Positions 5,580-55,700 of a DNA stretch of 64,000 nucleotides are shown here, piece after piece (within the stretch, counting starts at the first letter, position 1; the number at the start of each line of letters is the position of its first letter). The DNA comes from an uncultured Clostridia bacterium (GTDB taxonomy: Bacteria > Bacillota > Clostridia > Christensenellales > DTU072), in contig CALVJA010000012.1 of NCBI GenBank assembly GCA_944331875.1, positions 638 through 64,637 of the forward strand, written 5' to 3'. The position numbers were made by a program, and so were the translations under genes. Under the pieces are notes generated by a model that saw only the letters and a program-made list of their open reading frames with translations, was not told the origin of the DNA and ran no database searches.

Positions 5580-5650
5580 ATATCTCTCCTTGTGTCGCGG
5601 ACGGCGTGCCGTCCCGTTTGACTTTCGCCGATTTTCCCCTTTTTTCGCCG

Positions 5651-5762: not shown

Positions 5763-5769
5763 TGAAGGC

Positions 5770-5798
5770 ATTATATCATACGCTTAGGACTTCGTCAA
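5770..5798 (-). promoter_or_regulatory. Sigma-A-type promoter of the riboswitch-ATPase-deoC unit
   Basis: Minus strand TTGACG-17 nt-TATAAT (-35 at 5793-5798, -10 at 5770-5775). Confidence 0.6.
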
Positions 5799-5807
5799 TA
5801 TTATTTT

Positions 5808-5972
5808 GTGGCGGCTCAAGCCGATTTTCGACTCAATAGGGCGCGTCCTTTCCGCTACGTCGTCGAAAACCCCGCTTGCTAAGACCGCAAGAGTATTAGC
5901 GGCGGGGGTTTTCTTAGACGTAACGAAAAATCCACTGCCCTATTGAGCCGAAAATCGACTTTCACCGCCACT
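5808..5972. repeat. Foldback element, copy 1 (inverted orientation relative to copies 2 and 3)
   Basis: Nested inverted repeats: GTGGCGG/CCGCCAC; a 23-nt arm GCCGATTTTCGACTCAATAGGGC pairing 21/23 with GCCCTATTGAGCCGAAAATCGAC; inner GAAAACCCCGC/GCGGGGGTTTTC. The core contains AGTATTAGCGGC, the reverse complement of the GCCGCTAATAC core of the neighbouring copies. Confidence 0.7.
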
Positions 5973-6009
5973 GACTGCTTACCAAACTTTCCTAAAAATT
6001 TTGTTAGAC

Positions 6010-6360
6010 AGCATAGTGTCGGTGAAGCTAAAATTTTGCTGTGATACGGTGATGGATCTCGGATACAGACGAAGAAAGGCGGTGCCGCTAATACCCGGAG
6101 GGTCTTGCGGCGCCGTTAGAAGCTTTTGGCTTGTGGCACTTAAATGATTGCGGCAACTCATGCATTTCAGCATTAGATTATTAGGAAGTATAGTGTCGGT
6201 GAAGCGGAAATTTTAGCGTTTTGCGGCAGGAGATTTTTCGTTAATGCGAAGAGAACTTCCGACGTTAATACCCGTAGGGTCTTAACTAGGAAGTTTTCAA
6301 AGCAGTAGCGGAAAAGATACGATGCAAAACGTTAAAATTTCCGCTGAGCCGACACAAAAA
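6010..6360. repeat. Foldback elements, copies 2 and 3 (tandem ~175-bp units)
   Basis: ATAGTGTCGGTGAAGC(T/G)(A/G)AAATTTT occurs at 6014 and 6190. Its inverted partner GTTAAAATTTCCGCTGAGCCGACAC is at 6331, giving a ~30-bp stem. Both units share the core TAATACCCG(G/T)AGGGTCTT. Confidence 0.7.
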
Positions 6361-6363
6361 AAA

Positions 6364-7836: not shown

Positions 7837-7840
7837 ATGG

Positions 7841-9193
7841 CTATTCTACCAAATCGTTCAGTTCGTCCGTGTATTCGCTGGCGGTCACGACGATAACGGT
7901 GTCTCCCGCTTTTATCTCGGACTCGCCGTCCGGTATGAAAACCTCTCCGCCCCTTATGATCGTGGCGACGAGCGCGTTGTTTTTGAGCCGCACGTTTTTA
8001 AGCGGCGTGTCAAGCGCGCGGAAAGACTGCTCCACCGTAAATTCAAGCGTTTCCGCGCGGTCGTTCATTATCCTGATGAGCTTTTTGACGGCGCCGCCCG
8101 ATTTCGAGCCGCTCCTGCTTCTCGCGAACCGCGCGATAAGGTCTGCGGTTATCGCCTTCGACGACACCACGGAGTCTATGCCCGACTCCTGCAGCATCGA
8201 ATAGTACCCGTTCTTTTCGACTCTCGCAATGACTTTTTTGGCGCCGCGGCTTCTGGCGAACAGCGACATTATGATGTTTTGTTCGTCCAAAGTGCAAAGC
8301 GACACGAATGCGTCCGTCTTCTTTATGCCCTCGTTGATAAGCAAAGTGTGGTCGGACGCGTCGCCGCATATCACCTCCGCCTTGTCCAAAAGCTCGGAAA
8401 GTACCTTGCATCTTTCCTCGTCCGATTCTATTATCTTGACTTTGACGCCCATGCGCTTTAAGTTTTTCGCAAGATAATATGCCACTCTGCCGCCGCCCGC
8501 TATCATAACGCGACGCATCTGTTTGTCGCCGGATATCTCCTTGAAAAAGGTACCTATGTCTCCGGACGCCGCGGCGATATACACGGTGTCGCGAGCGCGG
8601 AGCGTGAAATTGCCGCGCGGTATCGAAACGGTGCCGTCCTCTCTTTCCACGGCGCATACCAAAAACTTTACGGAAAAGCGCGTTTTGATGTCCTTGAGTT
8701 CCAGCCCGTCCATGACCGAGCCGGGGGCGACTTTTACTTCCGCGAGGCTCACCGAGCCGTCAGCGAAGGTCTCTATCTTTATCGCGGACAGATACTTGAG
8801 CGCCGACGCTATCTCCCGCGCAGTCTGGTATTCGGGGTTCACCATCATCGTCAGTCCCAGGTCGCGCTCCTTGAACAGCTCGAAGTACTCGGGGGATCTG
8901 ACGCGGGCTACTGTATCCTTCGCGCCGAGCTTCTTCGCGACCAGCGAACACAATATATTCAGCTCGTCCTGCGGAGTGCACGCCACGAACAGATCCGTCG
9001 TCGCTATGCCCGCTTCCTCCAAAACGTCGAAATCGGCGCCGTTGCCGACTACCCCCATCACGTCGTAAAGGTCAATGAATTCGGAAAGCTGTTTCGCGGA
9101 CGAATCCACCACGACGATGTCGTGTCCCTCTTCGGAAAGCCTTGCGACGAGTTCCTTGCCGACGTTTCCCGCGCCGACTATAACTATTTTCAT
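7841..9193 (-). CDS. trkA: Trk system NAD-binding peripheral subunit
   Basis: 450 aa. Two Rossmann GxGxxG motifs (VGAGNVG, IAGGGRVA), each followed by an RCK_C-like segment. Confidence 0.9.
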   Translation of the reverse strand: MKIVIVGAGNVGKELVARLSEEGHDIVVVDSSAKQLSEFIDLYDVMGVVGNGADFDVLEEAGIATTDLFVACTPQDELNILCSLVAKKLGAKDTVARVRSPEYFELFKERDLGLTMMVNPEYQTAREIASALKYLSAIKIETFADGSVSLAEVKVAPGSVMDGLELKDIKTRFSVKFLVCAVEREDGTVSIPRGNFTLRARDTVYIAAASGDIGTFFKEISGDKQMRRVMIAGGGRVAYYLAKNLKRMGVKVKIIESDEERCKVLSELLDKAEVICGDASDHTLLINEGIKKTDAFVSLCTLDEQNIIMSLFARSRGAKKVIARVEKNGYYSMLQESGIDSVVSSKAITADLIARFARSRSGSKSGGAVKKLIRIMNDRAETLEFTVEQSFRALDTPLKNVRLKNNALVATIIRGGEVFIPDGESEIKAGDTVIVVTASEYTDELNDLVE

Positions 9194-39333: not shown

Positions 39334-39362
39334 ATTATACCAAATACCCGCGCCAAAGTAAA
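39334..39362 (-). promoter_or_regulatory. Sigma-A-type (extended -10) promoter of the pyr operon
   Basis: Minus strand TTTACT-17 nt-(TGg)TATAAT. The leader is ~25 nt to the AAGAGG SD. Confidence 0.6.
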
Positions 39363-39394
39363 GCGTTTTCCGCCCCAAACGGACTTGAGTTTCA

Positions 39395-39700
39395 TTTTTA
39401 GCCTTTCGGCTAAAAGTGATATGCACGTTCCGTGCGTGATATTTTCAGCCCGAGGGCTGAAAGTTACCTTAACTTCTCCCAACGGGAGAAATATCACTCT
39501 GCGAAGCAGAATATCACTTGACGAAGTCAAATATCACTTTGCGAAGCAAAATATAACTTGAGTGTTTAAGTGATATTTTTTAGCCTATCGGCTAAAAAGT
39601 GATATGCACGTTCCGTGCGTGATATTTTGCCCTAAAGGGTCAAAGTTATATTTTCAGCCTTGCGGCTGAAAGCTTTTTCAGCAGTCCGGCTGAATAGAAG
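39395..39700. repeat. ATATCAC/GTGATAT-punctuated mini-hairpin array with a 4 x 20-bp iteron-like core
   Basis: GTGATAT at 39416, 39436, 39570, 39599 and 39619. ATATCAC at 39491, 39511 and 39531. Degenerate ATATAAC at 39551 and GTTATAT at 39645. 12 or more hairpins lie between the motifs. See findings. Confidence 0.85.
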
Positions 39701-39768: not shown

Positions 39769-39826
39769 GAAAACGCCGCGGGACAGGAGTTTAGTAAAAC
39801 CTAAATGACTGTTCCGCGGCGTTTTC
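39769..39826 (+). repeat. Long-stem hairpin element, copy 2 (possible terminator after the 878-aa protein gene)
   Basis: 18-bp stem GAAAACGCCGCGGGACAG/CTGTTCCGCGGCGTTTTC around GAGTTTAGTAAAACCTAAATGA. Same architecture as 19417-19473. Confidence 0.8.
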
Positions 39827-39848: not shown

Positions 39849-42485
39849 TTATATCCGGTCAGAGCCGGTGAGACGATCATAGAGGGTTTGATCGTTGGGA
39901 ATTTGGTCGCCCGGTTCGATGAGGGGCGGACCGGAGGTAAAGTCGGCGCAGATGAGGAAGCAGTCGTGGTTGATGGTGAGTCCGTCGACGAGCATACTGG
40001 CAATGTTTGCGATGGCGCGTATGGTATCGCTGTCGGCGATGGCGAGGTCGGCTATGCGCATACCGGTCTCGGGAGCCACGGTGACGCCGGTAAGGTCGTA
40101 GGAGCACATGAGCCCGAGGCCGAAGCCCGCTATCGAAACGTACTCCGCGCCACCGTAATTATAGATCAACCCGTCGAAAGCGCCTGCGGCAAACATTTCG
40201 TTTACGGCGGTTGCGAAAGGTCCGTCCAGAAGAGAGCTCGCCGCCTGCAGCGCGGGTACCATGGTATAGACGGTCGTGGTCAGAATGTTGTAGACTTCGT
40301 CCGTCGTTTTCCAGTTATACACGTCCATTATCCCTTCTATCGTGATATTGGGGATTATGTTACGATTCATGTTGTTGGCGTCTATGACGCGCGGGACGAT
40401 CTGTACCGATGCGCCGTAACTCATCTTGAAGACGTTGTTGCGCAGCGTGACGTGGCAGTTTTTGGCGTCCTCTCTGTAATATCCGAGCTCTATGCCGGAG
40501 GTGTAGTTATCGCCCAGAATGCAGCCTTCTATCGTCAGGTCGCCGACGGAGTGCGCCTGCAGTCCGCGGGTAGTATTATAGATCTGGCAGTAGCGGTATG
40601 TGACGGAACTGTTCCTTACATCGCGCGCACGAATAAGATGGGAGGTCTTTCCCGCGTCGTCCAGAGTCAACGCGCCGCGCATGACGATGTCCTCGAATAC
40701 GAAACCGTCCGTATAGACCTCGCCCGCATACTCCTGCCCCTCGGCAAAGTGCGTGCCGCCGTTGATCTCGAAAACGAATTCGGTGGACTGCGACTCGGTC
40801 GGTCTGTGCGCCGAAAAGTCGAAGAGGAATCCGTTTCCGTATATGCTGGAGCGCATGGTTTTCGCTCTGACGTCGTTGGTGGCGTATGCGTCGCCCTGCA
40901 TAACGATGTCGTGACTGCCGAGGTCTATCGCGCTCAGCACGTCCTCGAAATCGTAGGTGTTGAACGCAGGAAGTTTATGGAAGCGGAAAGTAAAGCTTCT
41001 TCTGACGTCTACGGGACGGTTGTTTACCATCAGCGTCGCGGTCAGTGTCACGTTCTTCCCGAGCGCCCGGACGGGATCGACGGTAATCAGAGCGGCTTGA
41101 GAGCCTTCCTCTTTCGCCACGCTCACGGGCTGCACGGCGCCCTCTTCGAGCCCCTCCGTGGACACGCTCCACCTGACGTCGAAGGAATTCGAGTCGCCCA
41201 CTATCCCCAGGCGGAAAGTGTTCGTGGGTTCGTTGTTTTCGTTAAGCCACTCCGTCCCCCATATCCTCGACATTTGGATGCCGCGGGCGGCGTCGGCGGT
41301 GGTAAGTTCCAGCGTGAACGATACCGGTCGTTCGCGCACGGTGACGATCTTGGATACCGTATGTCCGTTGTATTCGGCAGTCAGAGTGACCACCCCGGCT
41401 TTTACCGGTTTTAACTCGAAACCTTTACCGCCCGATATCGTTTCGACAATTTCCACGCCGAGAACGTCGGTATCGTCCGAAACCAGCGTCAGAGATTCGT
41501 CCTCTATCGCTTCTCCGGAGATCAAGTATCCGAACGTCGCATAATAGGGACCGTTCTGCGTATATATCGTGGTGAGTCCGTCGGTAAATCCCCATTCGTC
41601 CTCGGCGCAGTAGATAACGCCTATCTCCACGGTGGTGAGCTCTCCGCCGGAGACGATCTCCACGGCATAGCGGTCGTCGGACAGCCTTTCGATGCCTGAT
41701 ACGGATACGTCATCGCCCGTGACGACGTTCATTCTGATCAGCTCGTCTATATCCCGAATACCGTCCGCCACGTAGATCTCGGTCTTCTTGACCAAAGCCT
41801 CGGAAGTGTCCACATAGACGGTCCTGCGATGATGGTTGCCTTCGCGGTCGGTCGCCGCCAGCGTGACCGTGGTAATGCCGCGGGATACAGGCGTCACTGT
41901 GCCGTTCACGGAAACGGAAACTATACCGGAATTTCCGCTTATCCACTCCACGTTGGATTCGTGGAGCGCCGCCATCGGGTTTATGTCGTAATAAAACTGC
42001 TCCGTGGTCTTCAGGGAGTAGACGGCGCTTTCCGCTATCTCCGCGCCCTCGCCGTTATAGATGTCGATGGAAGCTATTTCGGTCGTGGTCACGTAAAAAT
42101 GCAGGGTGAATACAACGTTGATGTTCTTTGACGCACGGATGATGAGATCGGTCGCGCCCATCTCGAGAGCGCGTATACGGTAACGGTTCGTCCCTTCTAT
42201 CGGCACGAGCTCCACGGAACCGGAACCCGCCCCCTCGTCGCGTTCCTGCAGAATGCTTTTATCGGGCGTCATGGACGGATAGACTTCGATAATCAGAAAG
42301 TCTTCGGTATTTATATCGACCGTTATCAGTTCGCCCGCGGCGATCTCCTCGTTACGGGAATTTTTAACGACGATGCTCTCCGGATTGACCGGAGTCGTCA
42401 GCAAAATGATATTCGACGTCACGCTGAGCGCCAGTACAGCCACTATCGGTATTATACAGATCACGGCTATCAGAAATTTTTTCAT
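39849..42485 (-). CDS. Signal-anchored surface protein with Big_2 (Ig-like) repeats and a C-terminal beta-helix-like region, paralog 1
   Basis: 878 aa. N-terminus MKKFLIAVICIIPIVAVLALSVTS. Big_2-like block NVEWISGNSGIVSVSVNGTVTPVSRGITTVTLAAT. The C-terminal half has PbH1-like strands (IYGNGFLFDF, LTIEGCILGDN, VTLRNNVFKM). Confidence 0.75.
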   Translation of the reverse strand: MKKFLIAVICIIPIVAVLALSVTSNIILLTTPVNPESIVVKNSRNEEIAAGELITVDINTEDFLIIEVYPSMTPDKSILQERDEGAGSGSVELVPIEGTNRYRIRALEMGATDLIIRASKNINVVFTLHFYVTTTEIASIDIYNGEGAEIAESAVYSLKTTEQFYYDINPMAALHESNVEWISGNSGIVSVSVNGTVTPVSRGITTVTLAATDREGNHHRRTVYVDTSEALVKKTEIYVADGIRDIDELIRMNVVTGDDVSVSGIERLSDDRYAVEIVSGGELTTVEIGVIYCAEDEWGFTDGLTTIYTQNGPYYATFGYLISGEAIEDESLTLVSDDTDVLGVEIVETISGGKGFELKPVKAGVVTLTAEYNGHTVSKIVTVRERPVSFTLELTTADAARGIQMSRIWGTEWLNENNEPTNTFRLGIVGDSNSFDVRWSVSTEGLEEGAVQPVSVAKEEGSQAALITVDPVRALGKNVTLTATLMVNNRPVDVRRSFTFRFHKLPAFNTYDFEDVLSAIDLGSHDIVMQGDAYATNDVRAKTMRSSIYGNGFLFDFSAHRPTESQSTEFVFEINGGTHFAEGQEYAGEVYTDGFVFEDIVMRGALTLDDAGKTSHLIRARDVRNSSVTYRYCQIYNTTRGLQAHSVGDLTIEGCILGDNYTSGIELGYYREDAKNCHVTLRNNVFKMSYGASVQIVPRVIDANNMNRNIIPNITIEGIMDVYNWKTTDEVYNILTTTVYTMVPALQAASSLLDGPFATAVNEMFAAGAFDGLIYNYGGAEYVSIAGFGLGLMCSYDLTGVTVAPETGMRIADLAIADSDTIRAIANIASMLVDGLTINHDCFLICADFTSGPPLIEPGDQIPNDQTLYDRLTGSDRI

Positions 42486-42547
42486 AGCTTTCTTTAATTT
42501 ATCTCCGTTGTCATTAGTTTTTCACAAATCCGCCGCCACACCATGCG

Positions 42548-45463
42548 TCACCGAGTATATTTCGCCCACGGAGCAGCCTCTCCTCTAGACGCCGTGAGCT
42601 TATCGTACAGCGCGTCGTTTGCGGGCACCGGGTCGCCCGGTTCTATTTCGGACATACCGGACGAGAAGTTGTTACACAATATCATGCATGTGTTGGACGC
42701 CGTGCTGAAGCCGTTGAGTTTCATAGTTCTGACGAGGTCTTCTATTGCTTGGAGATTTGAGGGAATGCTGCCGTCGGCGTACCTCATCATCATTTTGATG
42801 ATCTCCACGTCCGACGACGTCGCTTCCGATATACGCACCCTGTCGAAATCCCATCCGTATACGCAGCCCATGCCGAACATGCCGAGCCCTATATATTGGT
42901 CGCCGGCGTACGAGTAGTACAGGTTGTCGTTTTCGGAAATGCCCAAAAATTCGTTCACCACCCTTTCGAGATAGCTGTCCAGAAGCGTAGTGACCAAAGT
43001 TTCGAATTGCTCTCCGGCGACCATAACCAAATAATAAGCGATGAGATCTTTTACGCTTTTATAAAAAGTATCTTTCGTCATCCAGTTGTATATATCCAAA
43101 GAGCCCTCGACATACAGGTTGGGCGCCACCGAATAGTCGCCCCAATTATAGTTGTAACCGCCGGGCATGCCCGTACCGGAGAAGACCACGGCGGGACCGG
43201 AGCTCATTTTGAACACGTTGTTGCGGAAGGTGAGGTTGTACCCGGGGCGGCGGTCGTCGGTATAAGTATTCGGCGCCGACGAGACCACATTGCGCCCGGA
43301 ATCGAATTCGTAGATGTAGTTCGAGTACCTTCTGAGCGGTTCCATATGATAGACCGTGAGCACGGAATGCTTGAAGTTGTCGCCCAGTATGCAGCCCTCT
43401 ATAAGCACGTCGTTGACGCGGTCGATATGGATACCGCGCTCGGAATTGTATACCTCGCAGTATTTTATCGACATGGGCGGGTCGCGCGGCACGTTCGCGT
43501 TTATCGCCGGCTCGTTGTAGAATCCCAGAGTATAACCGATCACGCCGAAGCTGCCGTCGGCTTCCTCCAGCGTTTCGGCGCCGCGTATTTTAAGGTTGTA
43601 CACGGTAAATTCCGATATGCCGAGCTCTTCCATTTTGTCCAGCATTATCTCTTTCGAGGGCGTAGCCCCGCCGAAATACGTACTTCTGAGCCTGTTGTAT
43701 ATGTCCTCCCAGCGGTACCTGAGGGCTGAATCTCCGTTCGTCGGCACATCGACCGCCGCCGCGTCGTACAGGAAACCGTTGCCGTATACGGAGCCCGTCA
43801 TGCTCGAGAACATCCTGTCCGCGGCAATATCGGACTGCAGCACATAATCGTACGTCGGATAAGAATCGTAGACGGCGGCGAAATCCCCGGCGTCGTATAC
43901 GTTCACCGAATTCTGTTTTTCGAGCATGGAGAACACGAAACTTCTCTGCATACTCTCCACCACTCTTCCCTGCATATACAGTTTCGCGGTCACTCTGACG
44001 TCTTTACCCGCCGCCGCTTCGGTGAACGTGATGTACACGTCCGAGGTGGAATCGTACGCCGGAGTAAGTTCCGCGAGCTCGGGATCGTTCACGAACCAGC
44101 GCACCTCGAACGCGCCCGTATCGTTTTTCAGACCGAAACGCATCGTCCGACTCAATCCTCCCTCCTCATCGAGCCAATAATTACCCCAATAGCGGTCGCG
44201 CGCTATGCCGCGCTCGGTGTCGGTCATCTGGAGCATAAGGTCGAACGCGACGGGACGCTCTTTTACCGTAAAAGACGCGGATACGCTCTCGCCGCCGTAC
44301 GTCAGCGTGACGGTCGCCGTGCCCGCTTTCAGCGGAATGAGACGCGAAGTTTCCGCGTCCACCCCCAAAACGTCGGGAGCATCGCTCGACGCGGCGAATC
44401 CCGTCGCGATCCTTTCACCGCTCGTATAATCGAACACGGTGAACGGATACGCGCCGTTTCCGGAATATATCGTTTCGTCCATGGCGCCGAAGCCCCAGCC
44501 CGTATCGGAGTAGCGCACCTCGACGTCGACCGAGTATATGCCCGAAGTGACTCTGAACAGCCTTACCGTGCCCTGAGCGCCGCCTGAAACGGCGATCTCG
44601 GAGACTTCGGCTTCCGGGTCGAGGAGTTCGGTTTCGTTGAGCCACGCGGCGATTTCGCGTTCCGTCGAACCGAACAGCGCCTCGTCCGTGACGAACACCG
44701 TCGTATCCGACACCAGCGCTCCGGAAAGATCGACCGTGAACGAAGCCGTAAACTGTTTGCCCGCTCCGTCGTAGGCGGTGGCGGTTATCTGCACTCTCTC
44801 GTCGGTGCGCTGCATCGGAGTGACCAGCCCCGTTTCGTCCACCGTCGCGAGCTCGGGATCGGAGGACTGCCAGATTATATCGTTATCGAGCGACGTATAC
44901 GCGCTGTGCGGCTCCGCCGCGGTATAAAAGCGCTCCGCTCCGACAAGCTTTATCTCGCCCGAGTATTGCGTTTCGTTTTTCGTCGCGTACGCTATCGGTT
45001 TATCGGGGTCGTCGCCCGTATCGGTATATATCTCGAAGCGGTCTATTTCCTTCGTCGTGACGTTGAAAGTGACCGTTTTGTACACGTCTCTTGCGGACGC
45101 GGCGCGTATCGTCAGCTTGGCGACTCCCGCGGATACGGGCACTATCGTGTAGCGGTCGGAGGAACCGTCCCGCTTTTCGAGCTCTACTCTGCCGCTCATG
45201 CCCTCTTCGGACGCGTCTTCGTAGACTATCTCTTTGTCCCTGACGAAAGAGGGAAGGATCTCTATCACCAAAAACTCGTCCGTTTCAGCGACGTCGATAT
45301 CGACGACCTCGTCCGAACCAAGCTCCACGTTCGAGGAATTTTTGATGATCAAGTCGCTCGCGTTGGGGCTCGTCGCGGACAATATGAGCGAACTCGTGAC
45401 GCTCAATGCCAGCACGACTATGACGGGGATTATGCAGATGACGGCTATCAGAAATTTTTTCAT
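42548..45463 (-). CDS. Signal-anchored surface protein with Big_2 repeats and a C-terminal beta-helix-like region, paralog 2
   Basis: 971 aa. N-terminus MKKFLIAVICIIPVIVVLALSVTS. Big_2-like block IIWQSSDPELATVDETGLVTP. VYGNGFLYDA, LIEGCILGDN, LTFRNNVFKM. The C-terminal tail is shared with paralog 1. Confidence 0.75.
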   Translation of the reverse strand: MKKFLIAVICIIPVIVVLALSVTSSLILSATSPNASDLIIKNSSNVELGSDEVVDIDVAETDEFLVIEILPSFVRDKEIVYEDASEEGMSGRVELEKRDGSSDRYTIVPVSAGVAKLTIRAASARDVYKTVTFNVTTKEIDRFEIYTDTGDDPDKPIAYATKNETQYSGEIKLVGAERFYTAAEPHSAYTSLDNDIIWQSSDPELATVDETGLVTPMQRTDERVQITATAYDGAGKQFTASFTVDLSGALVSDTTVFVTDEALFGSTEREIAAWLNETELLDPEAEVSEIAVSGGAQGTVRLFRVTSGIYSVDVEVRYSDTGWGFGAMDETIYSGNGAYPFTVFDYTSGERIATGFAASSDAPDVLGVDAETSRLIPLKAGTATVTLTYGGESVSASFTVKERPVAFDLMLQMTDTERGIARDRYWGNYWLDEEGGLSRTMRFGLKNDTGAFEVRWFVNDPELAELTPAYDSTSDVYITFTEAAAGKDVRVTAKLYMQGRVVESMQRSFVFSMLEKQNSVNVYDAGDFAAVYDSYPTYDYVLQSDIAADRMFSSMTGSVYGNGFLYDAAAVDVPTNGDSALRYRWEDIYNRLRSTYFGGATPSKEIMLDKMEELGISEFTVYNLKIRGAETLEEADGSFGVIGYTLGFYNEPAINANVPRDPPMSIKYCEVYNSERGIHIDRVNDVLIEGCILGDNFKHSVLTVYHMEPLRRYSNYIYEFDSGRNVVSSAPNTYTDDRRPGYNLTFRNNVFKMSSGPAVVFSGTGMPGGYNYNWGDYSVAPNLYVEGSLDIYNWMTKDTFYKSVKDLIAYYLVMVAGEQFETLVTTLLDSYLERVVNEFLGISENDNLYYSYAGDQYIGLGMFGMGCVYGWDFDRVRISEATSSDVEIIKMMMRYADGSIPSNLQAIEDLVRTMKLNGFSTASNTCMILCNNFSSGMSEIEPGDPVPANDALYDKLTASRGEAAPWAKYTR

Positions 45464-45584
45464 TTACAGAATGCCTCTTTCAAGTACGATTTTTTTGCCT
45501 TTTGCCGATCGGGATCGGCGTATTTTTTCGACTTTTTGTTTTTTCACGCTTCTCCGGGAACCCAAACAAGCGTTTTATATGCGA

Positions 45585-47246
45585 TTATTTCGCGATTTTG
45601 TTATATGCCTTTTTCAGCCCTATCGTGTATATCAGGACGGAAACCACGAAGAACGCTCCCGCCAGCGCGGTGACCAGGATATACATGAATCGCATGTCGA
45701 ACGTCAGTGTGAACGTGCCGAACGCAAGGGCTATCGGAGTCTCCAGGGAGCCGATATAGCTAAGGAACATACACAGTATTCCTACCGTCAGCGCGACGGC
45801 GAATCCGAGCGCCACCGAAAACGTCGTCGAGGCGTTGTTGTTGACGACCTCGCCTTCGCCGGAGAGGTTGAAGTACGGACGCGCTATGTCCATGCGCATC
45901 GACACCAGAGTCAGTCCCACGGAGCACATCTCGACGACGGCGAAAAGCCACAGCCCGTTCGACACCGCTACCTGTTCGGAGCCGATGAGCACCCCGACGC
46001 ATATCGCGTTGGCAATGACGGACACGATAAGGTACATGACGAATTTGGCGAAAAGCTGCGTCCTTATCGACACCGGCGCCACCTTGGTATGATAGAAGTT
46101 ATCGCCCTCGCGGCTGGTGGACGTCGCCGAAAACGAGGTAATAACGGTGGCGAAGATAAGCATGACGAGCATCGACATGCCGAGAGATATCTGCTCGCCG
46201 ACCTGGTTTTGCCCCAGCTCCCTGGTGATGTTGTTGCAGAAAAACACCATTACCGGCATCGCGCACGCCAAAACGAAGTATTGGAAGGAGTAGTTGACGG
46301 AGCGGAATACCTGCAGAAACTCTTTGTGCATCAGCGTTACGAACACGGGGCGGCGGCGGTTTCCGGTAACGTGTTTGAACGCGCTGCCCTCCACCTCGAC
46401 GTTGTTCAGAAGCGTTTTGGCATACAGGAAATATATCACCATGATGGTCCCTATGAGCGTGATCCCCGTCAGTCCTATCAGCACGGGATATGCGATATAT
46501 AACTCATGCCCCACCATGACGTCGGCAAAATACTTCATCGGTATCAGCCATTTTGCGACGTTTTCGATTATTTCGACCATACTGTCGCTGAAAACGGAGA
46601 ACTCCCTGTCGTTCATGAACGTCACCATACTGTTGAACAGCAGCATATATACCGCGAACGCCGCGGTGACGAGAACGGCAAGTCCTATTATGATCAGCGC
46701 GAATTTGTTGCGGATCTTGTTCGTCAGGTGCATTATCGGTATCGCGAGTATGTTGCTCAGGAAAAACGTAATGAACACCAAAAACAGTATCGGAATTGGT
46801 ATTTTGGCGTAAAACGCCGCCCCCAGCCCGCTCACCTCGGCATACGCCACCAAAAAAGGCGCCATTATTATCGCGGTGGCGAAAAACTGGGTCAGGAACA
46901 AAAACAGCGTTTTGGATATGAAAACCTCCGTACCCGACACGGGATAGCGCATGAGTATCTCGTTGTCGCCCTTGTAATACAGTACTTTTATCGTGCTGGT
47001 AATGCCGGCGAACAGCATGAACAGGAATATGACCGACACCAAAAGCACCAACGCTTCGTACAGCAGTCCGCCCGTGTCGAACATATCGAAAAACAAGCCT
47101 GCCGCCCAGTATATCGCGTATATCACGGCGGCGAGGAGAACAAGCGTCCCGAACAGTCTGAAATAGGATTTGTAATCGCTGACGGAATAGTTCGAGAACC
47201 TGTTTTTTATCTCGAGCCTCAGGAGAGTGCGGATGTTGCCGTTCAT
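45585..47246 (-). CDS. Large polytopic ABC exporter permease (ABC-2 / putative ABC-exporter type)
   Basis: 553 aa from ATG 47246 (ATGA overlap with the ATPase stop). Roughly a dozen hydrophobic segments. The track extension to 47573 runs inside the ATPase gene. Confidence 0.75.
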   Translation of the reverse strand: MNGNIRTLLRLEIKNRFSNYSVSDYKSYFRLFGTLVLLAAVIYAIYWAAGLFFDMFDTGGLLYEALVLLVSVIFLFMLFAGITSTIKVLYYKGDNEILMRYPVSGTEVFISKTLFLFLTQFFATAIIMAPFLVAYAEVSGLGAAFYAKIPIPILFLVFITFFLSNILAIPIMHLTNKIRNKFALIIIGLAVLVTAAFAVYMLLFNSMVTFMNDREFSVFSDSMVEIIENVAKWLIPMKYFADVMVGHELYIAYPVLIGLTGITLIGTIMVIYFLYAKTLLNNVEVEGSAFKHVTGNRRRPVFVTLMHKEFLQVFRSVNYSFQYFVLACAMPVMVFFCNNITRELGQNQVGEQISLGMSMLVMLIFATVITSFSATSTSREGDNFYHTKVAPVSIRTQLFAKFVMYLIVSVIANAICVGVLIGSEQVAVSNGLWLFAVVEMCSVGLTLVSMRMDIARPYFNLSGEGEVVNNNASTTFSVALGFAVALTVGILCMFLSYIGSLETPIALAFGTFTLTFDMRFMYILVTALAGAFFVVSVLIYTIGLKKAYNKIAK

Positions 47247-48001
47247 TGTCCCCTCCTCAGAAGCGTCTGATCGTTGATCCTGTCCTGCTCGGTAGCGGTG
47301 ATCTCGACGAAACGTTTTTCGAGAGTTTCCTTGTTGCCCTTTACGTGCAGATCGATGACGTCCTGCAGCTTGCCGTCTTTGATTATCGCGGCGCGGTCGC
47401 ATATCTTGGCGACGAGATCCAGGTTGTGCGACGAGAAAAACACCGTATTCCCGTCCGCGCAGTGATCGTCCATCCTCTTCAATATCTCCGCCATCGACTG
47501 ATGGTCTAGTCCCATCATCGGTTCGTCCAGCACCCACAGTTTCGGATTGTGGATGAGCGCGGCGATGATGCATATCTTCTGTTTCATTCCGTGTGAATAC
47601 GATTTTATCTGAGTGTCGACCGCTTTCGTCAGTTTGAACTGCGAAACGTATTTGTCGAAGCGTTCGTTTCTGTCGCGTTTAGAAACTTTATACAGGTCCG
47701 CGGTGTAGTTGACGTATTCGCGGCCCGTCAGCTTTTCGTATACCGAGTGGTTGTCGGGAACGTATCCCATATTCAGTTTGGCGTTGATGGGATCGCGGGC
47801 TATGTCGTATCCGCAGATCGTTATTTTCCCGGAGTTGAACGGGTAGATCCCGGTCAGGCACTTTATCGTAGTAGATTTTCCCGCACCGTTTTGTCCCAAA
47901 AACCCGAAGATTTCGCCCGGGTTCAGTTTCAGCGACAGATCTTCCACCGAAAAACGTTCGGAGTTGAGGTACTTTTTATACAGATGACTTATTTCCAGCA
48001 T
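47243..48001 (-). CDS. ABC transporter ATP-binding protein
   Basis: 252 aa. Walker A GQNGAGKST, signature YSHGMKQK, Walker B LWVLDEP. AGGAGAAATAA SD. Confidence 0.92.
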   Translation of the reverse strand: MLEISHLYKKYLNSERFSVEDLSLKLNPGEIFGFLGQNGAGKSTTIKCLTGIYPFNSGKITICGYDIARDPINAKLNMGYVPDNHSVYEKLTGREYVNYTADLYKVSKRDRNERFDKYVSQFKLTKAVDTQIKSYSHGMKQKICIIAALIHNPKLWVLDEPMMGLDHQSMAEILKRMDDHCADGNTVFFSSHNLDLVAKICDRAAIIKDGKLQDVIDLHVKGNKETLEKRFVEITATEQDRINDQTLLRRGQ

Positions 48002-48065
48002 TTATTTCTCCTATTTATGTATTCGCGCGCGCACGCGCGCCTTTTATTATATATAATCTTTTAAT

Positions 48066-48094
48066 ACTCTATCATATTATTATATATCTGTCAA
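48066..48094 (-). promoter_or_regulatory. Candidate sigma-A-type promoter of the ABC/surface-protein cluster
   Basis: Minus strand TTGACA-17 nt-TAGAGT. The ~58-nt leader contains the GC-only hairpin GCGCGCG-UG-CGCGCGC. Confidence 0.4.
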
Positions 48095-48227: not shown

Positions 48228-48956
48228 ATGATAGTCATTCAGGCAAAAGACTACGATGAAATGAGCAAAAAAGCGTACGAATCGATGAAGATCGTACTCA
48301 CGGAAAAACCGGACGCCGTCCTCGGTCTCGCGACGGGCTCCACGCCGATAGGACTGTACAAGGAAATGATCGCCGACTACAAAGCGGGCGCGGTGAGCTA
48401 CAAAAAAATGACGAGCATAAACCTGGACGAATACGTAGGTCTCCCCGTCGAGCACCCCGAGTCATACAGGAGCTTCATGAACAGAAACCTGTTCGATCAC
48501 ATCGATATCGTAAAGGAAAACACCCACGTTCCCGACGGACTCGCGGCGGATCTGAAACTGGCGGCGGACGAATACACCGCATTCGCCGCGGCGCACCCCA
48601 TCGACATACAGATCCTCGGCATAGGCGCGAACGGTCACATCGGATTCAACGAACCCGGCACCCCCTTCGATTCCCACACCCACGTCGTCGAACTAAAAGA
48701 AGGAACGCGCCGCGACAACGCGCGCTTTTTCGATAACGACATAGACCTCGTTCCCACCCACGCGGTCACGCTCGGCATGGCGGATATCATGAACGCGAAA
48801 GCGATAATCCTCTTGGCCTCCGGTGCCGGCAAGGCGGAAGCGGTGCGCGACATGGTGCTTGGTCCCGTCAGCGAGAACTGCCCCGCGTCGATACTGCAGA
48901 CGCATCCGAACGTGCTCGTCGTGACGGACGAAGCGGCGGGATATTATTTGAACTGA
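48228..48956 (+). CDS. nagB: Glucosamine-6-phosphate deaminase
   Basis: 242 aa. GLATGSTP, NLDEYVGL and GIGANGHIGFNEPG blocks. Confidence 0.93.
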   Translation: MIVIQAKDYDEMSKKAYESMKIVLTEKPDAVLGLATGSTPIGLYKEMIADYKAGAVSYKKMTSINLDEYVGLPVEHPESYRSFMNRNLFDHIDIVKENTHVPDGLAADLKLAADEYTAFAAAHPIDIQILGIGANGHIGFNEPGTPFDSHTHVVELKEGTRRDNARFFDNDIDLVPTHAVTLGMADIMNAKAIILLASGAGKAEAVRDMVLGPVSENCPASILQTHPNVLVVTDEAAGYYLN

Positions 48957-50539: not shown

Positions 50540-51874
50540 TCACAGCTGGGTCGCGGTAAAACTCTGTCCGAGCCGTCTGGACATTTCGTCGGGAAGTTCT
50601 ATCGTAACGGCGCTGCCCTCTTTTTTCAGAAGCTCCCTCGCCGTGGAGATCAGCGTATCGCCGCCCTTGCCGCTCGTCACCCTGCCCAGGAAAATGGCTT
50701 TGTCGAAATCGTAGAATTCGTTGAACCACATCAGAGTATAAGCCGCGTATTCGCCTAATCTCGTGAATATCGCCGCCGCCCTTTCGTCGCCCTCTTCCGC
50801 AAGGTTTTGAACGACTTTCAGCTTCTCCGCGGGTGTCAAAGAGGGATCGAGCTCTATCCCCGCCTCCGGCGCAAGACGTATGACCGCGTCCTGGGAATGG
50901 TACATACCGCCCACGCCTCTGTCGCCGCTCCATTCGTCCGCCGCGGCCTCCCTGTTCGCGTCCACGGGAACGAAGGCGAGCTCGTTCAGATACCCGCGTA
51001 TGCGCATATCCCTGTCGACGTATCCGCCCGCGAGACTTGTGCCCATCGCTATCCCGAGAACGCCGCCGCGCTTCAAGCCGAACGCGCCCGCAAGCGCCGC
51101 CACGTCGCCGTCGTTTGCCACCTTGACGGGGCAGCCGTACTCCGCGGCGAGATTTTTGTATATCGGGAATATCTTTTCGGCGTACACTTCCTCGGGAACT
51201 TTACGGAACAACGAAGCGACCCTCACCTCGTTATCCACCACGATGCCCGCAGTCGATACGCCTATCGCGTCCACTTCGCCGCCGAGAGCCTCGAGCGCCG
51301 CGTCGACGCTTTCGTGAATTCCGTCAATGTGGTACTGCGGATCGGAATTGAGCTTCGGGTGCCATATCGTTTCGTTTTCGTATACCGGAACGCCGTTTAT
51401 GCACGCGGTGACCTTTCTGTCTGAGCCGCCCGCGTCGAAGCCTATGCGCTTTCCCGCGCCCTCGGGGGCGGCGGGAGCGGCTGTGACGGACTCGGCGGGG
51501 AGTTTGTCCGGGGACGTTACCGCCTCGAACTCAAGACCCCTAAGGTACACGCCTTTCATGAATTTATAGTCGAAACTTCTTTCGCCCATGTCCGAATAGC
51601 ATTCGGAGAGCCTATTTAGAAGCTTTTTGTCGGCTCCGTATATGTAAAACTTATAGCCGCCGTACGCCCACAGCAAAAACTTTATTATGCGTTCGGCATA
51701 CGCGAAATTTTCGTCGTCGTGCCCCTCGGCGTACAGTACGGTCGAGTACCTCGCAACCTCGCCTTCGCCGCGCCTCAAGGCGATCTCAAAGGGCTTTTCG
51801 CCCGCCTTTACCGCCGCGTCGGTGAAATCGCGCGCGTACAGGTACATAGGGTAATAGTTTTTATCTAGCATCAT
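50540..51874 (-). CDS. ROK/ASKHA-family sugar kinase with ~190-aa N-terminal extension
   Basis: 444 aa from ATG 51874 (ATGA overlap with the upstream stop). GFDAGGSD, ANDGDVAALAGA and GIAMGTSLAGG blocks in the C-terminal two thirds. Confidence 0.75.
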   Translation of the reverse strand: MMLDKNYYPMYLYARDFTDAAVKAGEKPFEIALRRGEGEVARYSTVLYAEGHDDENFAYAERIIKFLLWAYGGYKFYIYGADKKLLNRLSECYSDMGERSFDYKFMKGVYLRGLEFEAVTSPDKLPAESVTAAPAAPEGAGKRIGFDAGGSDRKVTACINGVPVYENETIWHPKLNSDPQYHIDGIHESVDAALEALGGEVDAIGVSTAGIVVDNEVRVASLFRKVPEEVYAEKIFPIYKNLAAEYGCPVKVANDGDVAALAGAFGLKRGGVLGIAMGTSLAGGYVDRDMRIRGYLNELAFVPVDANREAAADEWSGDRGVGGMYHSQDAVIRLAPEAGIELDPSLTPAEKLKVVQNLAEEGDERAAAIFTRLGEYAAYTLMWFNEFYDFDKAIFLGRVTSGKGGDTLISTARELLKKEGSAVTIELPDEMSRRLGQSFTATQL

Positions 51875-52710
51875 TCCAGCCTCCATTTTTCGATATGGAC
51901 TATCTCCTCGCCCGGTGCGACGGTCACCGCGGGCGACAGCGTTTCGCACTCGTGAATGAGGTCGCTGGTGTATGTTTCGAAATTCGACGTAAAATCGGGA
52001 TACGCGCCGGGTAAGGCTGTGCATTCCTTCGTAAAAAGCGTGTCGCCGTAACGGTAATACGCGCGGATGTTATCGAGATACGTTCCTATCTTCAGCGGTT
52101 TTTCCGCCTCGGTGGAGCCGGTGAGTATGATGCGGTCGTTCGCTATCGTGAGGCGCGGGTCGTTGATGTCGGTATAATGCCACAAAACGATGTTCCTGTT
52201 CGCCAGATATCCCGTGTCCTCGGTGGAAAGCGGCAGCGTAAGCGTACCGCCGCATTTCATTACCGTCAACGCCCATACGATGAGCGTTTGGGGCGCCGAG
52301 GATATGTTTTTGACGCGCATTTTGACTTCCAGCGCGCCGTCCGGAGTAAACGTAAGTTCCAATACGGGCTGCACGCCCCTTTCCGTCCACGCGGGCGGCG
52401 TGAACATCGCGCCGTCCGGCTTCAGTTCCGACACCACCGGCGCGTTGTCGGGGTAGTATGTCGCGAGAGACTCCGGCGAAAGCCATATCCTGTGACCGCC
52501 GTATATGTGCCACTTTTTGCCCTCGCCGTACACCTCGGAAACGTCCTTGGACACGTTGTCGCCGACATCCTCGAACATTATGTTTTCGCCGTCCGTTTTC
52601 TGCAGCTTGATGATCCTGGGACCCACGTCCAGAGTCACTCCCACGACGATATTGCCGTTAGTGAGCTCCAATGTCCTTCCCAAAAAACAACTTCCTATCT
52701 TTGCTTCCAT
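51871..52710 (-). CDS. Hypothetical protein, possibly mutarotase-like (DUF4380-like)
   Basis: 279 aa, all-beta-looking. The GGHRIWLSPE block resembles what I recall of DUF4380. The functional assignment is tentative. Confidence 0.6.
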   Translation of the reverse strand: MEAKIGSCFLGRTLELTNGNIVVGVTLDVGPRIIKLQKTDGENIMFEDVGDNVSKDVSEVYGEGKKWHIYGGHRIWLSPESLATYYPDNAPVVSELKPDGAMFTPPAWTERGVQPVLELTFTPDGALEVKMRVKNISSAPQTLIVWALTVMKCGGTLTLPLSTEDTGYLANRNIVLWHYTDINDPRLTIANDRIILTGSTEAEKPLKIGTYLDNIRAYYRYGDTLFTKECTALPGAYPDFTSNFETYTSDLIHECETLSPAVTVAPGEEIVHIEKWRLE

Positions 52711-52739
52711 ATAAACTCCCGAAATCGATTTTTTATACG

Positions 52740-55700
52740 CTAAAACGTTATATGCAGGATGAGTTTGACGAGCGTTCCGCGCGAAATTAACGAACTTGCA
52801 ATGCTGATACCCATTTCCCGGGCGATGTCGCGCGCTTCGTCTATGACGCCCTGGGTGCCGCCGAGAGACGTCGTGAACTCATTGTCCAGCGCTACGCTGA
52901 ACCACGCGTTGCCGGGCATCCTCGACGTAACGAATTCGAACGCCGCCGCGAGTTCCTCGACGGAGCCTATCGTTAGATCGGTGCCCTCGCCGGTGGATAT
53001 CTCGTATGCGTACAGTCTGCTGTCCGTAGGAGTTGCGTAGTGGGTGCCGTAGAACCGGCGCGAGACTGCCGCGTCGTCGTAACTGAGCAGGAAATACTCG
53101 TGGTCTATCGTTTCGTAATTATCGTTTCCTACCTGTATGGTCATGTTCGCCCACGTCGGGTCGACATAGAAGTAGCGTCCGTCTATCACCAACGCGTTCC
53201 ATGTGTGTCCCACGGCGGGGACGTTCCTGGTGACGCCCATTATCTTGTAACTATGTATACCTTCCATGCTGCACATCAGCGCATACGCTTTGGCGATGCC
53301 GTCGCATACGGCTGTGCCGTCGTCGAAAACGCCCTCCGGATAGAACGCGTTATACGAGCCTATGCCTGCGACTCCGACCCTAGCCGCGGCAAGGTTGTCG
53401 TAGCTGACGTTGACGGCTATCCAATCGTATATCGCAAGAGCTTTGTCTATGTCGCTCATACCGCTATCGATGATCGAGTTCAGCGCGCTTTTCGCCTTGT
53501 TATATATCCTTTCCGCGGCGGAACCCTGAGCGGGGAGCGGTCTGTAGCCGTTTATCGCCGCATAATAAAGCTGGTTAGACGTGCTCACCTCAAGCGTGTA
53601 TTCCAGGCTCTCTATCGGGAGTGCCGCGCCCGTGCCCCTCGGGTCGGAGGAATAATTCGTCAGCGCGTCCTCTACGTCGGGATAACGACCGTCGGTATTG
53701 TCCGGCTCGTACATCCCTACGGGGGATAAGTCGGACAGGACCGCAACGGAATATGTGACTCTGCCCGCCCGATCGGCGGATGTCACCCTTATCCCGAGGC
53801 TCACCGATTCGACGTATCCGTACACCGCCGCCACCATGATATGGTATGCGTCGCGTTGGTCCTCGCTGTAGCCGGAGATGCTGTCGGGATCGAGGACAGC
53901 GTCGTCGAACGTATAGAACTCCGCGGGAAGATCCTCGAAATCGAACGGTATAAACAAATCGACGCTGTACCATGTATTTTCGCCCGATGCGGTCGCGTCG
54001 ACCAGCTCCGCGGGTCTGAACAGGGAAATGTAGTTTATGATATCCCCGAGCTCTTCGACGTCGGATATGTAACCGTCGAGTCCCCCCGCGACCTCGGCAA
54101 AGTATTCGTAATGCGAGGGAGTGAAAGTCCCCGCCTCGTAATTCACCCAATCCGTCCAGTTATCGTATCGGGAACCCCGTACTCTGACGGCGAAACTTTC
54201 CGCACAGTTCGCCATGTCGTCGGGAATGACCGCATGGTTCCTGCCGAAATACTCCGCGTTGAGGACGGAGTTCAACGACACGATGGCGCCGTTTACGTTT
54301 ATCTCTATATAATAGTCGCTCTCGTACGGGAGCGCGTCCCACAGGACTTTGACCTGCCCTTCCGGCGTTCCCTCCACGGTCACGCCGTAAATATCGTTTT
54401 CGGAGCCGCCCGCGCCTACGACGACGGTGACGGTTTCGGAGACCACTCCGGAGGCTACGCTCTTGACCACCGCTTCAGCCGTGAAAGAATATGTGCCCGT
54501 TTCCTCGAAGATATATGTCAGATCGCTTATGACGTCTGCGCCGCCCGTCTGCGCCGCGGGCGCGCGGTTGAACGTTTGACTGGTAACGACGCCGTCCTCG
54601 TCCGTATGCGTGACGGTCCAGCGGTACTGCTCCGGCGGATACTGACCGCTCGTATACGTCACCAGGAAGCGCGCGGAATCGCCTACGAGATAATCGTAAT
54701 TTTCGCCTCCCCCGATAACGTCAAGACTGATGCTCTCGAGCGGACTGTAGATTATCAGCGGATCCGATTCAAGCACCTGCCGCTGCGTGCCGTTCGAAAG
54801 CTCCGCCCTGATGACATACTCGCCCGGAGGCAGCGTCGACGGAGTGTAATTCAATATCTTGCTCCCCCTGGACACGCCGTCCTCTATGGGGAACGTGTTT
54901 ACATACCACACTATCTCCGGCTCCGGGTCGGATATCGAATCCAGCTGTATCAGATTGAATTGCAGCGTTTCGGGGCTTCCCGCTATCTGCCGCATCGCGC
55001 TTTCGTCCGTTATAAGCTCCATGCGGTAATTGAGCGCGGAATATCTGACGTCTATCGTGACGTGCGTTTCCACCTGCGTGTCGAACGCGCCCTGCCGCGG
55101 AGTTCTGACCCATATAGCGACCTTGCCGATCCCGCGCGGAGTCACGAATCCCGAGGAATCTACCGTCGCTATCGAGGTGTCGTCGGAGGAATATTCGACG
55201 TTTCTGCCTATCGACGCGTGCGAGGGTCTGAATTGCGGGTTAAGCTGTACGCCGCCGCTGTGCAGTTCGACCACGATGACGTTTTCCGAAAAAATTATCT
55301 GCTCGACAGCGACCTCCTCTATCGTCACGGTCACCTCGACATACACGTCTGAAGACTGGTCGGAAGTGATGACGACTATAATGTCCTGTACGTTGCCCTC
55401 TTCGTCCTGCTTCACCTCTCCCCTTGCGGTCAGCGTGCCGTCCGTCCCGACCAGAAGATATCTCCTGTCCGAGTTGTCCCTGAGGGAATAATGCACGCCC
55501 TGGCTCGCCGTTTCCGTGGGATATACCCTGGGCTCCAATTTGTAGGTGGAAGCGTCGCCCGTCGGCGAAAGATAGATATGCGTCGTTTCAATTTCGATAC
55601 GCTCGGCGGCGCCCTCCGAAGGAGTGCAGCCCGCGGCGATCGAAACGACGATAAGCGCCGCCATAACGATCAATATGATGCCGATAGCCCTTTTTCGCAT
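52740..55700 (-). CDS. Lipoprotein with Big_2 repeats and C-terminal transglutaminase-like cysteine protease core
   Basis: 986 aa. Lipobox SIAAGC. Big_2-like block VEYSSDDTSIATVDSSGFVTPRGIGKVAIWV. Cys-His-Asp core AVCDGIAKAY ... VGHTWNALV ... YVDPTW. Confidence 0.8.
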   Translation of the reverse strand: MRKRAIGIILIVMAALIVVSIAAGCTPSEGAAERIEIETTHIYLSPTGDASTYKLEPRVYPTETASQGVHYSLRDNSDRRYLLVGTDGTLTARGEVKQDEEGNVQDIIVVITSDQSSDVYVEVTVTIEEVAVEQIIFSENVIVVELHSGGVQLNPQFRPSHASIGRNVEYSSDDTSIATVDSSGFVTPRGIGKVAIWVRTPRQGAFDTQVETHVTIDVRYSALNYRMELITDESAMRQIAGSPETLQFNLIQLDSISDPEPEIVWYVNTFPIEDGVSRGSKILNYTPSTLPPGEYVIRAELSNGTQRQVLESDPLIIYSPLESISLDVIGGGENYDYLVGDSARFLVTYTSGQYPPEQYRWTVTHTDEDGVVTSQTFNRAPAAQTGGADVISDLTYIFEETGTYSFTAEAVVKSVASGVVSETVTVVVGAGGSENDIYGVTVEGTPEGQVKVLWDALPYESDYYIEINVNGAIVSLNSVLNAEYFGRNHAVIPDDMANCAESFAVRVRGSRYDNWTDWVNYEAGTFTPSHYEYFAEVAGGLDGYISDVEELGDIINYISLFRPAELVDATASGENTWYSVDLFIPFDFEDLPAEFYTFDDAVLDPDSISGYSEDQRDAYHIMVAAVYGYVESVSLGIRVTSADRAGRVTYSVAVLSDLSPVGMYEPDNTDGRYPDVEDALTNYSSDPRGTGAALPIESLEYTLEVSTSNQLYYAAINGYRPLPAQGSAAERIYNKAKSALNSIIDSGMSDIDKALAIYDWIAVNVSYDNLAAARVGVAGIGSYNAFYPEGVFDDGTAVCDGIAKAYALMCSMEGIHSYKIMGVTRNVPAVGHTWNALVIDGRYFYVDPTWANMTIQVGNDNYETIDHEYFLLSYDDAAVSRRFYGTHYATPTDSRLYAYEISTGEGTDLTIGSVEELAAAFEFVTSRMPGNAWFSVALDNEFTTSLGGTQGVIDEARDIAREMGISIASSLISRGTLVKLILHITF

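Follow-up and report, generated by a model that had tools for sequence, protein, structure and literature searches.

An ABC-2-type transporter encoded with tandem Ig-like/beta-helix proteins: a candidate cell-surface system of Christensenellales

A 64,000-nucleotide stretch of DNA from an uncultured Clostridia bacterium (Christensenellales, DTU072; contig CALVJA010000012.1 of assembly GCA_944331875.1, positions 638 to 64,637; hereafter the window) carries, on its minus strand from position 48001 to 39849, a cassette of four co-oriented genes. In this cassette, an ATP-binding cassette (ABC) ATPase and a permease are followed by two large paralogous proteins, each predicted to have an N-terminal hydrophobic helix, an immunoglobulin (Ig)-like stalk and a beta-helix tip. 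The best explanation, at a probability of about 0.45, is that the cassette encodes one envelope module: the helix of each large protein would dock on the permease and couple the hydrolysis of ATP, or a substrate that is exported, to a tip that binds or cuts glycans. ABC transporters with a dedicated partner outside the membrane are already known as a kind of system; what is new is the beta-helix domain family. An earlier interpretation of the same letters (the sequence-only reading) had proposed an uncharacterised cell-surface system here, a proposal now supported by a gene order retained in 34 of 34 related public loci with enough flank, in three systems and in four families.

Christensenellales-type bacteria are widespread, mostly uncultured organisms of guts and digesters, and their envelope biology is almost unknown. 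The cassette is among their most consistently kept surface-protein loci, being present in every sampled genome of the genus, in four families and in up to three systems per genome. It pairs a very conserved membrane motor with fast-evolving and repeatedly duplicated outside proteins.

Gene organisation

All coordinates were re-checked, and the four co-oriented genes, the ATGA overlap between the first two and the downstream gaps of 121 and 62 bp hold as the sequence-only reading had described them. The permease is given below with 553 amino acids; the open reading frame (ORF) list extends it to 662 by using an upstream in-frame ATG. Domain borders within the first large paralog were carried over from the model of the 878-amino-acid paralog via pairwise alignment. 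Positions are those of the window:

47243-48001, minus strand: ABC ATPase gene, 252 amino acids
45585-47246, minus strand: permease gene, 553 amino acids, ATGA overlap with the ATPase stop codon
45464-45584, minus strand: spacer between the permease gene and large paralog 1, 121 bp
42548-45463, minus strand: gene of large paralog 1, 971 amino acids
45374-45463, minus strand: predicted transmembrane helix of paralog 1
about 43913-45373, minus strand: predicted Ig-like stalk of paralog 1
about 42551-43912, minus strand: predicted beta-helix domain and conserved tail of paralog 1
39849-42485, minus strand: gene of large paralog 2, 878 amino acids, 62 bp after paralog 1
42396-42485, minus strand: predicted transmembrane helix of paralog 2
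40971-42395, minus strand: about five predicted Ig-like domains of paralog 2
39852-40970, minus strand: predicted beta-helix with helical insert and conserved tail of paralog 2

The ATPase and the permease

The ATPase matches PF00005 (2.1e-29), and its best NCBIfam match is drrA (TIGR01188, 4.8e-60), under the subfamily cut-off of that model. Its best solved relatives are the nucleotide-binding domains of ABCA7, ABCA1, ABCA3 and ABCA4 (E ~1e-56); LptB (1e-30) and NosF (9e-30) are also matched. By these similarities, it is a nucleotide-binding domain of the DrrA/ABCA class, the class of type V ABC exporters.

The permease matches PF16949 (ABC_tran_2; 5e-9; 36 bits, cut-off 25.7) from position 21 to position 533 of the 542-position profile, with additional weak matches to PF12730 and PF12698; no PDB relative was found by sequence. 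Its hydropathy profile has six plus six transmembrane segments and a longest loop of about 52 amino acids. Hydrophobic segments in this arrangement, with short loops only, indicate a fused double ABC-2 permease that lacks a large outside domain, and contact with any partner would therefore most likely take place inside the membrane. One fused 12-segment permease and two copies of the ATPase presumably form one transporter. Both its nucleotide-binding domain and its ABC-2 clan permease, with six segments per half, have the features by which ABC-2 or type V exporters are classed, and the cassette transporter is assigned by class to that group. In the literature, nothing specific was found on PF16949, on the genus or on NosD with a beta-helix. 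A role in anti-phage defence was considered and rejected, PADLOC having returned generic ATPase matches only.

Architecture of the large proteins

The 971- and 878-amino-acid proteins can be aligned over their full lengths (33% identity, E 2e-119), which bears out their description as tandem paralogs. In the full-length AlphaFold model of the shorter one (predicted local distance difference test score, pLDDT, 77), a single N-terminal helix at residues 2-30 (hydropathy peak at 4-22) is followed by about five beta-sandwich domains (residues 31-505) and, from about residue 506, by a right-handed beta-helix, with a helical insert and an alpha/beta cap bearing the conserved tail at the C-terminus. 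The several Big_2 domains claimed for each protein have stood only in part. Pfam gives a single Big_2 match per protein (PF02368, cut-off 22.8), at 32.3 bits in the 971-amino-acid protein and 22.6 bits, just under the cut-off, in the 878-amino-acid protein, so that the plurality of Ig-like domains is visible in the AlphaFold model alone. By Foldseek, the stalk domains resemble multi-Ig S-layer proteins and cadherins (E ~1e-10). Neither paralog has an LPXTG motif with a C-terminal transmembrane segment, an S-layer homology (SLH) domain, a lipobox or any other known wall anchor, and their C-termini (...LYDRLTGSDRI and ...LYDKLTASRGEAAPWAKYTR) are without a hydrophobic tail.

A previously undescribed beta-helix domain family

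Because a full-length Foldseek search was swamped by generic multi-Ig matches, the C-terminal domain was modelled separately. The 383 C-terminal residues, modelled alone with 65 homologs, gave a pLDDT of 89 and a predicted template-modelling score (pTM) of 0.90. Foldseek searches of PDB and BFVD with this model returned beta-helix proteins only, and almost all of these act on polysaccharides: pectate lyases, polygalacturonases, an alginate lyase, the AlgE6 epimerase, glycoside hydrolase (GH) family 87, phage depolymerases, tailspikes and VexL (6fi2, rank 39). These matches are weak, the best having an E of 3.7e-3 and the template-modelling score being at most 0.37. The Beta_helix model PF13229 scores 28.3 bits in the 878-amino-acid protein (cut-off 25.9; 1.6e-6) and exceeds the cut-off in 55 of 65 relatives. 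Both the Pfam match and the AlphaFold model confirm the beta-helix-like C-terminus that had been noted before, and together they place the domain, as predicted, in the right-handed parallel beta-helix superfamily (PbH1-type repeats, pectate-lyase-like).

The domain is a previously undescribed family of beta-helix domains that matches no characterised enzyme family. Searches of PDB by sequence, both with single sequences and with a 65-sequence domain profile, gave nothing meaningful for the large proteins or the domain, and NCBIfam contained no match for the large proteins. Membership in the characterised beta-helix families of polysaccharide lyases (PL) and glycoside hydrolases (PL1, PL9, GH28, GH87 and others) was rejected, there being no significant match in sequence or structure; checks of the C-terminal halves of the HHpred, Foldseek and AlphaFold type, which the sequence-only reading had proposed, likewise brought up no well-characterised enzyme family. 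An exhaustive HMMER search found the family to be rare, with 53 clusters among 1.84 billion representative proteins.

The motifs quoted in the sequence-only reading (YGNGF, EGCIxGDN and NNVFK) and its Cys-containing C-terminal tail proved to be invariant or near-invariant columns in alignments of 21 and of 65 sequences. Set in register, the motifs line up as consecutive rungs (TIEGCILGDN / TLRNNVFKMS / TIEGIMDVYN), and hence represent mostly the structural consensus of the repeat. Judged by rung register, residues E653/R682/E717 and D659/K687/D721 appear stacked and are candidate ligand-facing residues.

The domain also occurs on its own, in lipoproteins of about 465 amino acids with lipoboxes. 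Profiles of the stand-alone and tethered forms align by hhalign over the whole domain including the tail (probability 100%, E 1e-46), and public records for the stand-alone homologs read 'right-handed parallel beta-helix repeat-containing protein' or 'hypothetical' only. Stand-alone genes lie directly upstream of genes for a GH35 beta-galactosidase and an Fe-alcohol dehydrogenase (locus L052:7515-12036, with the same layout in L053-L058) and, in another lineage, upstream of genes for a metallophosphoesterase and a GH18 / F5-8-type-C protein (L050:7620-12493). These GH35 and GH18 neighbours are a modest hint at a glycan-related function; if the tip were a glycanase, the domain would become a candidate new family of carbohydrate-active enzymes.

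Conservation of the gene order

In each of the 34 related loci, the ATPase, the permease and one to four large genes follow one another in one order and on one strand, with identities of 77-97% for the ATPase, 50-85% for the permease and 27-70% for the large proteins. The domain is found in 21 of 21 other genomes of the source genus and in most genera of the family. Within family f1, the orthologous permease lies just upstream of the beta-helix gene wherever both share one contig, and the permease ortholog of system 1 (at least 49% identity) occurs together with the beta-helix protein in 31 genomes, neither being found alone. When 201 genomes of the order were searched with the profile, the domain came up in five families, in its long form in f1, f24, f26 and f100 and in its stand-alone form only in f11; of the 14 genomes that could be assessed, 12 have the long-form gene immediately after the permease gene. 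The ABC ATPase, permease and paralogs are thus kept together across genomes, the co-occurrence that the sequence-only reading had named as a check on its proposal.

Two further, paralogous systems repeat this arrangement at greater divergence. In system 2 the genes are arranged in the same way, with gaps of 3-13 bp; its ATPase, permease and big protein are 60-69%, 30-33% and 20-25% identical, respectively, to those of the window; it is also present in a genome of another family. System 3 lies in the source genome itself (G000, contig C20:8000-19000, here locus L100), at positions 3477-9072 of that locus on the minus strand:

8299-9072 of L100, minus strand: ATPase gene of system 3
6635-8425 of L100, minus strand: permease gene of system 3, product 25% identical
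3477-6638 of L100, minus strand: gene of a 1053-amino-acid protein

The 1053-amino-acid protein has a MKKKVILLIIIIPLVF helix and an Ig domain; its C-terminal region is a remote beta-helix domain, which aligns with the domain profile by hhalign at a probability of 69% (E 4e-5). A lipoprotein gene of more than 1157 amino acids follows it.

No terminator separates the genes. The big gene of systems 2 and 3 begins 3-13 bp after the permease gene or, for the 1053-amino-acid protein, overlaps it by 4 nucleotides. In the window, a consensus scan of the 121-bp spacer found no minus-strand intrinsic terminator, in agreement with the sequence-only reading: its hairpins precede A-runs, not U-runs, so have no U-tails, and its fold (z -0.65) is no better than that of shuffled sequence. 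As far as comparative genomics shows, the link between the ABC genes and the big proteins is real, and their adjacency is not chance.

The N-terminal helix and the evolution of the copies

Among 57 full-length proteins, residues 1-25 are the best-conserved stretch, with a mean pairwise identity of 0.675 vs 0.336 overall, and the C-terminal tail comes next (0.567). Of the domains, the membrane-proximal one of the stalk ranks second in conservation, and variability is highest in the distal parts. An MKK start, nine hydrophobic residues and then Pro13 are kept in all three systems. Between the two paralogs of the window, codons 1-24 differ by 10 synonymous changes and three conservative replacements, a pattern which indicates that selection acts on the peptide itself and argues against gene conversion. 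An ordinary signal peptide or anchor normally belongs to the regions of a protein that vary most. For an N-terminus as unusually conserved as this, the simplest explanation would be a conserved membrane partner, and the co-inherited permease is the obvious candidate.

In the tree of the large proteins, the first and second copies are sister clades within every sub-clade of the genus, and copies from other genera cluster by genome, which points to repeated tandem duplication or concerted evolution. Such duplication, together with fast divergence, fits outward-facing proteins with changing specificity.

Proposed function and alternative explanations

The envelope module proposed here would consist of a type V (ABC-2/ABCA-like) ATPase, a fused 12-segment permease and one to four bitopic proteins encoded directly downstream. 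Each bitopic protein would dock on the permease through its N-terminal transmembrane helix with the invariant proline, its Ig-like domains, about five in number, would form a stalk that spans the cell wall, and its distal beta-helix tip would bind or cleave a glycan or wall polymer. ATP could enter this scheme in two ways: an exported lipid or glycan substrate might be handed to the stalk and tip, or the outside proteins might be switched mechanically, as NosFY does with NosD and FtsEX with wall hydrolases. A bolder proposal, which is regarded as unlikely, is that of a monoderm NosDFY/FtsEX-like machine, in which the ABC-2 complex would transport nothing and ATP, acting via the transmembrane helices of one to four interchangeable proteins, would switch the cleavage of surface glycan or wall. 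If true, it would be the first switching machine of this sort to combine a PF16949 permease with a beta-helix domain of a new family.

Several observations weigh against the docked module. Catalytic residues are not assignable in the tip, the conserved motifs being largely structural PbH1-type rung consensus and not catalytic signatures, and the cassette is without glycosyltransferase or other polymer-synthesis genes. The residues after the hydrophobic core (ALS-VTS / ALSATG) are a possible signal-peptidase I site, so that the helix, uncleaved-looking in the sequence-only reading, may be cleaved. Adjacency breaks down in genomes G306 and G421 (genus g44, family f26), the sole assessable exceptions, in which beta-helix ORFs of 981 and 1006 amino acids lie on contigs other than that of the 34-35%-identical permease. 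Finally, other Clostridia often carry PF16949 ABC pairs (59 of 300 genomes), and in 12 readable loci of this kind no comparable big anchored protein is evident downstream, as judged by ORF length and N-terminus only; the exception among them is L076, with an open ORF of more than 436 amino acids and a hydrophobic N-terminus. Since these pairs are apparently partnerless, the transporter appears to work elsewhere without such partners, and the big partner proteins look like an addition specific to the present group.

One alternative, which we consider improbable, is that the export substrate of the ABC-2 complex is a glycopolymer of the wall or capsule, or a lipid-linked precursor; the beta-helix proteins would trim, modify or release that polymer, the transmembrane helix doing no more than keep these enzymes at the exit. 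Precedents exist for such export (TagGH, Wzm/Wzt and KpsMT) and for enzymes acting outside (the lyase VexL of the Vi-antigen ABC pathway and the AlgG epimerase). The assignment of the ATPase to the DrrA/ABCA class of type V exporters would suit this role, as would the occurrence of VexL, alginate lyase, the AlgE6 epimerase and phage capsule depolymerases among the Foldseek matches, and the nagB-like gene that lies divergently beside 18 of the related loci hints at hexosamine metabolism. However, all of those structural matches are weak (E at least 3.7e-3, template-modelling score at most 0.37), and within the window no glycosyltransferase, polymerase or flippase gene is found in or beside the cassette. 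Polymer export alone also leaves unexplained why the transmembrane helix is the best-conserved part of the proteins.

It is likewise doubtful that the large proteins do no more than share an operon with the transporter, being ordinary anchored or secreted enzymes that degrade dietary or host glycans, or adhesins, next to an unrelated exporter of a drug, peptide or ion. The stand-alone homologs of the domain, as lipoproteins beside GH35 or GH18 genes with no ABC link, would fit this explanation, as would the PF16949 pairs of the other Clostridia surveyed, which apparently have no such partner; rapid divergence and recurrent tandem duplication are typical of surface proteins that face a substrate or a host. 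Against it stand the retention of the linkage, often with translational coupling, in four families and in three paralogous systems whose identity has fallen to 20-30%, the complete co-presence and co-absence of both components in family f1, and the unusually strong constraint on the transmembrane helix.

A dedicated role in secretion or signal-peptide handling, in which the N-terminus would be a specialised cleavable signal and the ABC complex would release the proteins, clear the cleaved peptide or extract the anchor, much as EcsAB influences signal-peptide processing and Lol extracts lipoproteins, could account for the small residues at -3/-1 after the hydrophobic core (ALS, VTS, ATG), for an N-terminus far more conserved than ordinary signal peptides and for the lack of LPXTG, SLH or other known wall anchors in the proteins, but it is very unlikely, as the hydrophobic stretch of about 26 residues, modelled by AlphaFold as a single helix through residue 30, is more anchor-like, and ABC-2 type transporters are not known to secrete large folded proteins.

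Transcription signals and flanking genes

Three further features border the cassette:

48066-48094, minus strand: promoter-like site, sigma-70-like (TTGACA, 17 nt, TG-extended TAGAGT), 5' of the ATPase gene; a consensus match only (consensus scan, 10/12)
39770-39826, minus strand: long hairpin flanked by an A-tract and a U-tract, 23 nt after the stop codon of the 878-amino-acid protein; likely operon terminator
48228-48956, plus strand: divergent gene of a nagB-like glucosamine-6-phosphate deaminase (PF01182, 2.1e-21)

The hairpin at the end of the cassette folds with -34.6 kcal/mol (z -7.84), and 0 of 200 shuffles are equally stable; the consensus scan overlooked it because its loop holds an inner stem. 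A weak promoter-like site (9/12) is found at 45454-45483, overlapping the 121-bp spacer. The operon leader yielded no riboswitch or known RNA on search. It contains a perfect GC-rich palindrome (CGCGCGCGCACGCGCG, 48024-48040) between the promoter-like site and the ribosome-binding site of the ATPase gene, which was detected by the plus-strand terminator scan.

The flanks of the cassette are unrelated to it, with the nagB-like gene upstream and a Gut-1 repeat element, followed by a pyrB-pyrC-carAB operon, downstream. Eighteen related loci have the nagB-like gene (55-90% identity) likewise placed and divergently oriented, whereas the pyr operon downstream of the cassette is not kept; the gene is absent beside systems 2 and 3. 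It is treated as a conserved neighbour of the cassette, and its position is suggestive of hexosamine metabolism. The Gut-1 RNA or repeat copies (Rfam RF01706) lie at 39361-39630, in the interval that separates the operon terminator from the pyrB promoter; with 66.4 bits against a gathering score of 50, the copy at 39486-39559 (minus strand) is the best, and two weaker copies are on the plus strand. In the two closest relatives, a lipoprotein gene of 857-888 amino acids follows the second large paralog (L016 from 12611 onward and L017 from 12634 onward, both plus strand), in the position taken in the window by the terminator, Gut-1 and the pyr operon, and the downstream border of the locus therefore varies between strains. 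A neighbouring operon of the window (50540-55700, minus strand), which encodes a 986-amino-acid Big_2 / transglutaminase-core protein, a DUF4380-like protein and a long ROK-family protein, resembles another locus for a large surface protein and has no evident tie to the cassette.

Comparison with known systems

To our knowledge, NosDF2Y2 is the only characterised ABC-2 complex that carries a beta-helix protein. In this ABC-2/type V complex, the extracytoplasmic beta-helix protein NosD is seated on the permease, and ATP binding switches it (PMC13685413). The cassette likewise encodes an ABC-2/type V ATPase and permease alongside a right-handed beta-helix protein whose fold is of the carbohydrate-binding/sugar-hydrolase type. 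The solved relatives of the ATPase include NosF, at the score given above, and 6 of 65 members of the domain family give weak matches to the NosD model PF05048 (best 6.3e-5). The differences are considerable. NosY is a homodimer with six transmembrane segments per subunit, whereas the cassette permease is a fused 12-segment PF16949 protein; NosD is soluble and periplasmic and has neither the transmembrane helix nor the Ig stalk of the cassette proteins; the cassette carries one to four tandem paralogs; and its host is a gut monoderm of strictly fermentative type, with no nos context (nosZ, nosL) in the window. Membership in the NosDFY family was rejected, as the window proteins do not match PF05048 (E 0.01), NosD is outside the top 50 Foldseek matches in PDB and the permease lacks the NosY-type domain PF12679. 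A whole-genome search for nosZ (PF18764) returned no match, as was also the case in the control genomes.

LptC docks in LptB2FG, and MlaD on MlaE, through an N-terminal transmembrane helix. The large proteins share with these partners of LptB2FG-LptC and MlaFEDB the plan of a single-pass protein with an N-terminal transmembrane helix and an all-beta outside domain, encoded with an ABC transporter, and a docking of the LptC/MlaD type on the permease is inferred from their conservation and synteny. The Lpt and Mla machines serve lipid transport in diderm bacteria and use beta-jellyroll or MCE domains, whereas the cassette belongs to a monoderm lineage and combines an Ig stalk with a beta-helix.

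FtsEX, which acts with PcsB, CwlO or EnvC, transports nothing and uses ATP to switch an extracellular wall-cleaving enzyme, and it offers a possible working model for the cassette. FtsX differs in being a type VII (MacB-like) protein whose large outside domain holds the partner, whereas the cassette permease is short-looped and of the ABC-2 clan, and no peptidoglycan-hydrolase domain was detected in the cassette. With the lyases and hydrolases PL1/PL9, GH28, GH87 and VexL, and with the tailspikes, the cassette domain shares the right-handed parallel beta-helix fold; it differs from them by its own helical insert, its conserved Cys-containing C-terminal tail and the lack of an identifiable catalytic constellation. 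Should the proposed complex exist, the PF16949 transporters would obtain a first functional handle, and the short list of ABC systems with tethered partners (NosDFY, Lpt, Mla and FtsEX) would extend to a monoderm system that has a new beta-helix domain family.

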